A stretch of 64,000 nt of DNA from Escherichia coli (GCF_003018255.1 NZ_CP027440.1), one strand, 5' to 3'. Positions 7,996 through 8,560 are shown, counted from the first letter of the stretch. Numbers and translations are program-made. The notes: generated from the letters alone by a model not told the origin.

Positions 7996-8019
7996 GATTA
8001 CCTCTGCATCCTGGCGCAT

Positions 8020-8238
8020 CTAAAGACTGGCTTTACAGAGTTCAACACGGGTTCTACCTCGTCTTTTGGCGATATACAGAGCTTCATCGGCTATTTGAAT
8101 GAGGCGCTCATAGTCAGGATGACCATTAAACATGGCGGCACCGATGGAAAGTGAGAGGGCAATATCCTCGCCGTTTGCGGCTTTAAAATAATGTCGACCT
8201 TTATGGTTAAACCGCAGGCCAAAATCAACCAAACACAA
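8020..8238 (-). pseudogene. dosC: 3' remnant of diguanylate cyclase gene dosC; only the final part of a GGDEF domain is encoded
   Basis: 72-codon ORF ...DFGLRFNHKGRHYFKAANGEDIALSLSIGAAMFNGHPDYERLIQIADEALYIAKRRGRTRVELCKASL ends 24 nt before the dosP ATG; only about 565 bp separate yddW and dosP where a ~460-codon gene is expected. Confidence 0.75.
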
Positions 8239-8509
8239 CGTGCGAGATCGACTAACTGCACCATATTCTCCTGAAATATGAAGATATACTGAAAAGAAAT
8301 AAGCGACTTAGGACAGTTTCAATCTACGCTACTGTTCTTGAGAAGAGTATAGCCCATCGTAATTATTTTTCGGTGACAGCGAATATCGTATGTTTTTTCA
8401 TATTCATACATTTTTATTAGGGGATTTATGACTGTTTAACTAAGTGTGGTTAATTGCGTAGTTAATTTGACTTAAGTAAGCATGATTACTAGTGGGATAT
8501 TTCAAGAGG

Positions 8510-8542
8510 GTAACAAGCCGGGGGGAAAGCACCGGCTTGTTA
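8510..8542 (-). terminator. 12-bp perfect stem-loop just downstream of the yddW stop (no U-tract); possible terminator or RNA-stability hairpin
   Basis: gtaacaagccgg-N9-ccggcttgttac perfect inverted repeat. Confidence 0.4.
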
Positions 8543-8560
8543 CAAAGTAAGAATGGGAGT

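Follow-up and report, generated by a model that had tools for sequence, protein, structure and literature searches.

In a 64,000-nucleotide stretch of Escherichia coli DNA (GCF_003018255.1 NZ_CP027440.1), referred to here as the window, dosC is a dead pseudogene which has lost its start codon, its globin sensor and its GGDEF catalytic motif, and which lies directly before an intact dosP. The 565-bp spacer upstream of dosP is very probably what remains of yddY-dosC after two old deletions; the allele is of the B2 type, sits on a non-B2 backbone and was most likely imported by homologous recombination. Phylogroup labels (B2, D) rest on the names of the strains and not on typing, here and in every B2 or non-B2 statement that follows.

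Organization of the digH-dosP Region

On the minus strand the window carries gadB, gadC, digH (yddW), the spacer, dosP, ddpX and ddpA, in this order. An earlier note on this DNA had described dosC as a short 3′ remnant beside an intact dosP, with only about 565 bp between the yddW stop and the dosP start. This description holds on the minus strand, where the yddW stop lies at 8561, the dosP ATG at 7995 and the spacer (7996-8560) measures 565 bp. The note had also placed a full-length dosC here in the reference, and a dosC of 1,383 bp is indeed found in K-12, A_5, 042, 200164 and APEC O2-211, so that about 1.2 kb is missing from the window.

The upstream neighbour digH (8561-9880, minus strand) is an intact ORF of 439 aa, annotated as digH in the near-identical genome JNE23-011, whose DigH protein accession is also that of 200164 and APEC O2-211. 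Next to it, the digH-yddY intergenic region (8265-8560, minus strand) is retained, with the digH terminator hairpin and the promoter and leader of the former yddY-dosC-dosP unit. It aligns colinearly with the DNA that precedes full-length dosC in A_5, K-12, 042, 200164 and APEC O2-211, and it is the APEC O2-211 sequence apart from one private SNP at 8340. Twelve base pairs of this region (8449-8460, AATTAACTACGC) are missing in K-12 and kept in all other alleles examined; their absence is a promoter-proximal deletion at yddY-dosCP in the K-12 lineage. At the opposite end of the spacer, the dosC-dosP junction (7996-8019, minus strand) with the ribosome-binding site of dosP (GAGG) is preserved and is the same in the window and in the full-length loci. 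Downstream of dosP follows the ddp operon (ddpX-ddpA, 3193-5338, minus strand), a marker of the non-B2 backbone.

Anatomy of the dosC Remnant

By their match to window 7400-9200, two classes of complete E. coli genome can be told apart here. In the first, this segment is matched in one piece and PGAP annotates a pseudogene, 'diguanylate cyclase domain-containing protein', as incomplete and missing its N-terminus. In the second, it is matched in three pieces over about 3,018 bp, and dosC has its 1,383 bp. The junctions were set by pairwise BLAST against A_5 (dosC at 2016-3398 of the locus) and K-12; a three-way MAFFT alignment of the window with full-length loci misplaced the large gaps and was dropped for this purpose. 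Window 8698-8227 aligns to positions 1503-1974 of the A_5 locus, 8230-8184 to 2657-2703 (dosC nt 642-688), and 8184-7900 to 3234-3518 (dosC nt 1219-1383, then dosP). The window thus differs by two deletions of about 686 bp and 531 bp, which sum to 1,217 bp relative to A_5 and about 1,205 bp relative to K-12 and remove 391 of the 460 dosC codons of K-12. The suggestion in the earlier note of one or more internal deletions, as opposed to removal of the entire locus, is therefore borne out, the promoter and leader, the dosC-dosP junction and dosP all being kept. The frame change that it proposed within dosC is not found, since deletion 2 is in frame (177 codons) and leaves no frameshift.

Deletion 1 (junction at 8231-8235, minus strand) reaches from 41-45 nt upstream of the dosC ATG, in yddY codons 12-13, to about dosC nt 641. 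It takes the ATG and codons 1 to about 213, and with them the globin sensor domain. Its scar (...GTTTGGTTGATTTTGGCC...) is irregular, with 2 bp fewer and a base change, and is not a simple microhomology product; seven of nine sampled alleles have it in identical form, and Z1323CEC0015 has it with a one-base difference. Deletion 2 (junction at 8184-8185, minus strand) removes 531 bp, that is DosC codons 230-406, and the GGDEF active-site motif is lost with them: the stretch coding for RYGGDEFII is in the A_5 and K-12 rows of the alignment and missing from the window row. Between the two junctions a 46-bp island of the middle domain is retained (8185-8230, minus strand; DosC residues ~214-229), in which DFGLRFNHKGRHYF corresponds to DosC 216-229. 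It is followed by the dosC 3′ tail (8020-8184, minus strand; DosC codons 407-460 and stop), the pseudogene that PGAP lists as incomplete and lacking its N-terminus, which is identical to K-12 DosC 406-460 at 52 of 55 positions.

Because deletion 2 is in frame, an ORF of 72 aa (8020-8238) runs from DosC residues 216-229 directly into 407-460, as aligned to K-12 DosC 216-229 and 406-460. This frame opens only at a TTG in the leader, has no evident ribosome-binding site and stops 24 nt before the dosP ATG. Against the GGDEF profile TIGR00254 it covers positions 115-166 of 168 and scores 32.8 bits, below the cut-off of 37.4; a full-length GGDEF domain (TIGR00254 or Pfam GGDEF) is not matched above the curated cut-off by the remnant. 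The GG(D/E)EF active-site motif is absent from the window's dosC remnant, the corresponding stretch lying inside deletion 2, and the remnant holds neither the haem-binding globin domain of DosC (DgcO) nor a usable start codon.

A Chimeric Reading Frame Derived from yddY

A second frame is opened on the minus strand by caggagaatATG at 8273-8262, in which caggagaat precedes the ATG. The earlier note had seen here a strong ribosome-binding site and an ATG opening a different frame of 55 codons. The signals are real, but the frame (8091-8264, minus strand) has 57 codons and is that of the pre-existing gene yddY (b4746), whose stop codon was removed by deletion 1; with the K-12 annotation of b4746, a frameshift in dosC was ruled out as the source of this ORF. 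In K-12 MG1655, yddY is annotated with 13 codons and ends 37 nt upstream of dosC, and the alignment shows the same ribosome-binding site and ATG upstream of intact dosC in the full-length loci. The window conserves these signals and yddY codons 1-11 (MVQLVDLARCV) as in K-12. The 13-codon ORF ending upstream of dosC is not kept: deletion 1 joins the first 11 codons to the dosC remnant out of frame and takes away the stop, so that reading continues through the remnant in a non-dosC frame.

The 57-aa ORF has been deposited as the hypothetical protein UTI89_C1704. Its product has no NCBIfam match. Inspected by eye for a membrane helix, it shows hydrophobic stretches of about 14 residues which are broken by charged residues, and no helix is assigned. 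In K-12, YddY has been detected at low abundance via chromosomal epitope tagging, and the regulatory region of yddY drives PhoQP-dependent transcription induced by low Mg2+ (PMC11429745). Strains THO-015 and S12 carry three clustered nonsynonymous changes in yddY′ codons 5-7 (VDL to ANP; window 8245-8251 equivalent), together with an extra 1-bp deletion in the GGDEF tail (window 8068 equivalent) after which the frame reads into the start region of dosP.

It is quite unlikely that the 57-aa YddY′-DosC′ chimera or the 72-aa GGDEF-tail ORF is a functional small protein retained by selection. The chimeric ORF is uninterrupted in all nine sampled remnant alleles, from different lineages, and starts from translation signals that are experimentally validated in K-12; yet its changes among these alleles (six nonsynonymous, two synonymous) look like neutral decay, in a small sample with little power, and in one lineage the ribosome-binding site is weakened from GGAG to GGAA. 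The 72-aa ORF is named a 'novel short protein' in a preprint on ST131 (bioRxiv 10.1101/2022.05.07.487787), but its start is the unsupported TTG and its frame is broken in THO-015 and S12. The 57-aa product belongs to no matched family, and deletion of c1919 in CFT073 has no phenotype reported in the available portion of PMC3484386.

Distribution of the Allele

At least 80% of K-12 dosC is found in 4,294 of 5,426 complete E. coli genomes. Probes spanning the junctions (one of 141 bp, window 8150-8290, and one of 331 bp) match without a break in exactly 1,049 of the 5,426, or 19%. Carriers include UTI89 and a set of strains which we take to be B2, namely CFT073, Nissle 1917, 83972, ATCC 25922, NC101, APEC O1:K1:H7 and UPEC isolates. 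Both junctions are at the same positions in nine of nine sampled alleles from different lineages, NC101, APEC O1:K1:H7, THO-015, a Nissle derivative and UPEC132 among them. These shared junctions, taken with the irregular scar of deletion 1, indicate that the allele arose once. At least 1,000 contigs have the 72-aa ORF deposited, under names such as 'Putative conserved protein [CFT073]'.

The event is not strain-specific: the allele is widespread, annotated by PGAP and already in the literature, and the dosC remnant is the standard allele of B2-type E. coli. In the ST131 preprint, all ST131 reference isolates are said to have 'YddV/DosC transformed into a novel short protein' (bioRxiv 10.1101/2022.05.07.487787). 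With reference to Povolotsky & Hengge 2016, Cimdins et al. 2017 (PMC5635171) describe DosC as 'frequently absent' in E. coli. Spurbeck et al. 2012 (PMC3484386) deleted c1918 and c1919 and called them CFT073-specific, with only K-12 said to have dos and yddV. The motif residues given there for c1919 (...DEALY) fit the dosC remnant; from this motif table and the database name 'Putative conserved protein [CFT073]', c1919 is most likely the dosC remnant and c1918 dosP. A further article, PMC10459773, makes no mention of dosC or dosP.

One carrier departs from the common pattern. The chicken isolate Z1323CEC0015 (NZ_CP148423.1; 7021-7560, corresponding to window 8020-8560) has the same two deletions with ancestral-like bases at the equivalents of 8235, 8214 and 8035. 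Its DigH is identical to that of K-12, and across the yddY′ part PGAP annotates a partial 'hypothetical protein'. Z1323CEC0015 is either an early-branching remnant allele or a second recombinant, and the history of the allele is thus more complex than one clean B2 clade.

A B2-Type Allele on a Non-B2 Backbone

Over 50 kb, the nearest relatives of the window are non-B2 genomes with intact dosC. For window 1-25,000, two JNE strains (99.9%) are followed by 200164 and E04 (99.0%) and by 042-like genomes (98.6-98.7%), all of those after the JNE strains having full-length dosC; for 35-60 kb the nearest are APEC O2-211-type strains (99.3%). The window, K-12, 042 and 200164 carry the ddp operon, which is absent from NC101, THO-015, Z1323CEC0015 and APEC O2-211, where osmC adjoins dosP. 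The B2-type flanking haplotype, with its intergenic SNPs and no ddp, was not found in the window. The absence of ddpXABCDF (window 1-5338, ddpF-ddpX) from APEC O2-211, which has intact dosC, means that the loss of ddp and the loss of dosC were separate events.

Informative sites were defined as those at which two B2 alleles differ from two non-B2 alleles. At or above 8424, all 27 of them are in the non-B2 state in the window. The window equals APEC O2-211, which shares its DigH and also its GadC protein accession with JNE23-011, at 8560-8340, apart from the private SNP, and again at 8017-7189 with one site different. B2-specific bases appear at 8296, 8235, 8214 and 8035, along with both deletions. 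At 7750 the base is again APEC O2-211-specific, and below about 7141 the sequence becomes 042-like. The B2-type recombination tract therefore spans at least 8035-8296 and at most 7751-8423 (minus strand), with both deletions inside. Its length of 262-674 bp (0.26-0.67 kb), in coordinates of the deleted allele, rests on four diagnostic SNPs and the two deletions. The near identity of the dosP 5′ sequences in B2 and APEC O2-211-type strains leaves its right end poorly bounded. A longer B2 tract of about 1.05-1.4 kb, reaching into dosP to 7242, was considered and dropped, the dosP sites concerned being common to B2 and the APEC O2-211 lineage.

JNE23-011 and JNE112863 are the only two of the 1,049 genomes that share the window arrangement at 100%. 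The window's private variant of the 72-aa ORF, which differs from the B2 form by one residue (N to T), is present on 72 contigs, so that a lineage and not just one isolate is involved. At a distant locus, JNE23-011 has 96.4% identity to a B2 strain and 98.4% to its best non-self match, which speaks against a B2 genome with imported flanks.

The JNE23-011 genome holds two further observations. Between uxuA and mdtM (NZ_AP045067.1 500000-516000), a region known to be variable, it is at least 1.6% divergent from all other complete E. coli except its sister strain, and an internal stop interrupts its mdtM. Few genomes of the source lineage appear to have been sequenced. Colinearity between the window and JNE23-011 ends at 35,133 (99.8% identity and 66 mismatches up to there). 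At the equivalent of this position, JNE23-011 (NZ_AP045067.1 2210925-2240836) has a tandem array, of at least four copies, of an 8.3-kb filamentous-phage-like element encoding a Zot-domain protein, a pIV/GspD-like secretin, a coat protein, a single-stranded DNA-binding protein and a replication protein. In the window this array is missing and ordinary chromosome follows (lsr operon, uxaB); the strain of the window is therefore related to JNE23-011 but different.

Origin of the Allele in the Window

The mosaic would be accounted for by short-tract homologous recombination (0.26-0.67 kb), in which a B2-type donor passed the dosC remnant allele to a non-B2 chromosome. That the shortened dosC is only an assembly artefact, with a full-length dosC in the strain and about 1.2 kb lost by collapse or misassembly, has next to no probability. 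Many laboratories, with many platforms, have obtained the same two-junction structure in a total of 1,049 complete genomes, the junction region of the window has a 100% match in two independent complete genomes, and the deleted segments are not repeats liable to collapse. The earlier note had itself pointed to two ways in which its reading could fail, a reference normally without full-length dosC or sequence missing from the assembly; the reference has the full-length gene, and the deletion recurs in more than 1,000 complete assemblies. Nor is it at all probable that the lineage of the window lost the same dosC segments by itself, at end points favoured by the deletion mechanism. A short similarity (TGATT) does lie near the end points of deletion 1, and Z1323CEC0015 shows the deletion beside non-B2 SNP states; but a recurrent event would have had to place both junctions at the same positions as in every sampled allele, to reproduce a scar that simple microhomology does not explain, and to bring with it the linked B2-specific point mutations at 8296, 8235, 8214 and 8035. 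One-deletion intermediates are also lacking among the partial matches listed.

E. coli chromosomes are recombination mosaics, and the region studied here has three affinities within 4 kb. The window could therefore share the deletion with B2 by descent, its digH side, the 3′ half of dosP and ddp having been replaced later from non-B2 donors; local data alone give no direction of exchange, and the direction of transfer proposed here is inferred. We regard such vertical inheritance as unlikely. It needs at least 60 kb to have been replaced on both sides with 0.3-0.7 kb spared, the whole 64-kb window and the distant locus are non-B2-like, and the window has the fully derived B2 allele, not the more ancestral type of Z1323CEC0015. 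Import of the allele by homologous recombination into a non-B2 chromosome remains the reading that we prefer.

Integrity and Expected Expression of dosP

The partner gene dosP (5596-7995, minus strand) encodes 799 aa with a single stop, at the end. Its ORF extends to an in-frame ATG upstream at 8019, and the start is taken here as 7995. The product is identical to K-12 DosP at 791 of 799 positions (99%) in a gap-free alignment that includes the EAL motif, and the gene is annotated as dosP in JNE23-011. In DosP (PdeO), EALARW, H69 and M87 are unchanged from K-12, with an E71Q change nearby. H69 and M87 are presumably the haem axial ligands known from the EcDOS literature as His77 and Met95 in the older 807-residue numbering. 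Most differences in dosP are synonymous, also when two strains with the remnant allele are compared (2 nonsynonymous, 10 synonymous), a bias which is consistent with maintenance of dosP after the loss of dosC. Not every carrier has kept the gene intact: in the remnant-allele strain 2022H048 (NZ_AP029609.1, 890-1565) dosP is a pseudogene with an internal stop and both partners are lost. An internal stop in dosP is also reported for the UPEC strain B-11870 (PMC5635171).

With the promoter and leader, the yddY start, the dosP ribosome-binding site and full-length dosP all kept, the old promoter most likely continues to drive dosP. A transcript from this yddY/dosC promoter would reach dosP after a leader of about 270 nt. 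The expected outcome is an O2-activated c-di-GMP phosphodiesterase without its O2-sensing partner cyclase, and hence a module biased toward c-di-GMP degradation. For the strain of the window, both the expression from the old promoter and its consequence for c-di-GMP are inferred from sequence; expression of DosP without DosC is plausible. In CFT073, deletion of c1918 changes biofilm formation and an exogenous cyclase did not complement, according to Spurbeck et al. 2012 (PMC3484386); this phenotype indicates expression of the dosP homologue in a strain with the remnant allele and gives the inference indirect support.

Scans for regulatory elements gave little. A sigma-70 consensus scan of 7900-8650 found no site on the relevant strand and no excess over shuffles; sigmaS- and PhoP-dependent promoters do not fit this consensus. 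In the same interval and strand a terminator scan gave nothing above shuffles, and an Rfam scan of 7900-8700 on both strands found no family. The only terminator-like hairpin, followed by a T-run (AATGCCGCCGATGGCATT TTTTTCC), lies at 7957-7974 on the minus strand, within the first 40 coding nucleotides of dosP, and is invariant in all seven aligned alleles including K-12. It might act as a dosP attenuator, although one such hit is not above shuffle expectation.

Comparison with Known Loci

The locus in the window occupies the same site between digH and ddpX as yddY-dosC-dosP of K-12 (b4746, b1490, b1489), and the two have in common the promoter and leader, the yddY start, the dosC-dosP junction and a dosP with 99% protein identity. 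K-12 differs in its 13-codon yddY with a stop of its own and its 460-codon dosC. The closest likeness is to c1919/c1918 of CFT073 and to the loci of UTI89, Nissle 1917, 536, ATCC 25922 and ST131, which show identical junctions, the linked SNPs at 8296, 8235, 8214 and 8035, the 57-aa and 72-aa ORFs and an intact dosP. In B2 strains, however, the allele goes together with a digH-yddY intergenic sequence specific to B2 (about 13 differences in 140 bp) and with a chromosome without ddp, whereas in the window it has non-B2 flanks with ddp present. Loss of the cyclase with the phosphodiesterase usually retained is in line with the variability of the c-di-GMP network described in two reports (PMC5635171; bioRxiv 10.1101/2022.05.07.487787). 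In the available texts of these, the two-deletion anatomy, the fusion of yddY and the non-B2 backbone are not given.

Significance

The present analysis adds the precise anatomy of the allele, with two deletions, an in-frame island and a fused yddY, which explains why c1918 and c1919 of CFT073 were formerly treated as strain-specific genes. It also provides a probe for the junctions, with which genome collections can be scored cleanly for the allele, and evidence that the allele can enter a non-B2 chromosome on a sub-kilobase recombination tract. This import is only a mildly new observation, a modest population-genetic point and not a new kind of system. One may speculate, with little expectation of being right, that the DosP-only state is adaptive and is spreading among E. 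coli lineages by short-tract recombination, and that the deletion may also have made an expressed 57-aa YddY-DosC′ peptide; the lineage of the window would then represent a loss-of-function allele caught in horizontal transfer.

DosP without DosC is the state of about a fifth of sequenced E. coli, among them the main extraintestinal pathogens and the probiotic Nissle 1917. Since these strains are missing DosC, the O2 control of biofilm-related outputs derived from K-12 is not transferable to them, a point which is already in the literature.
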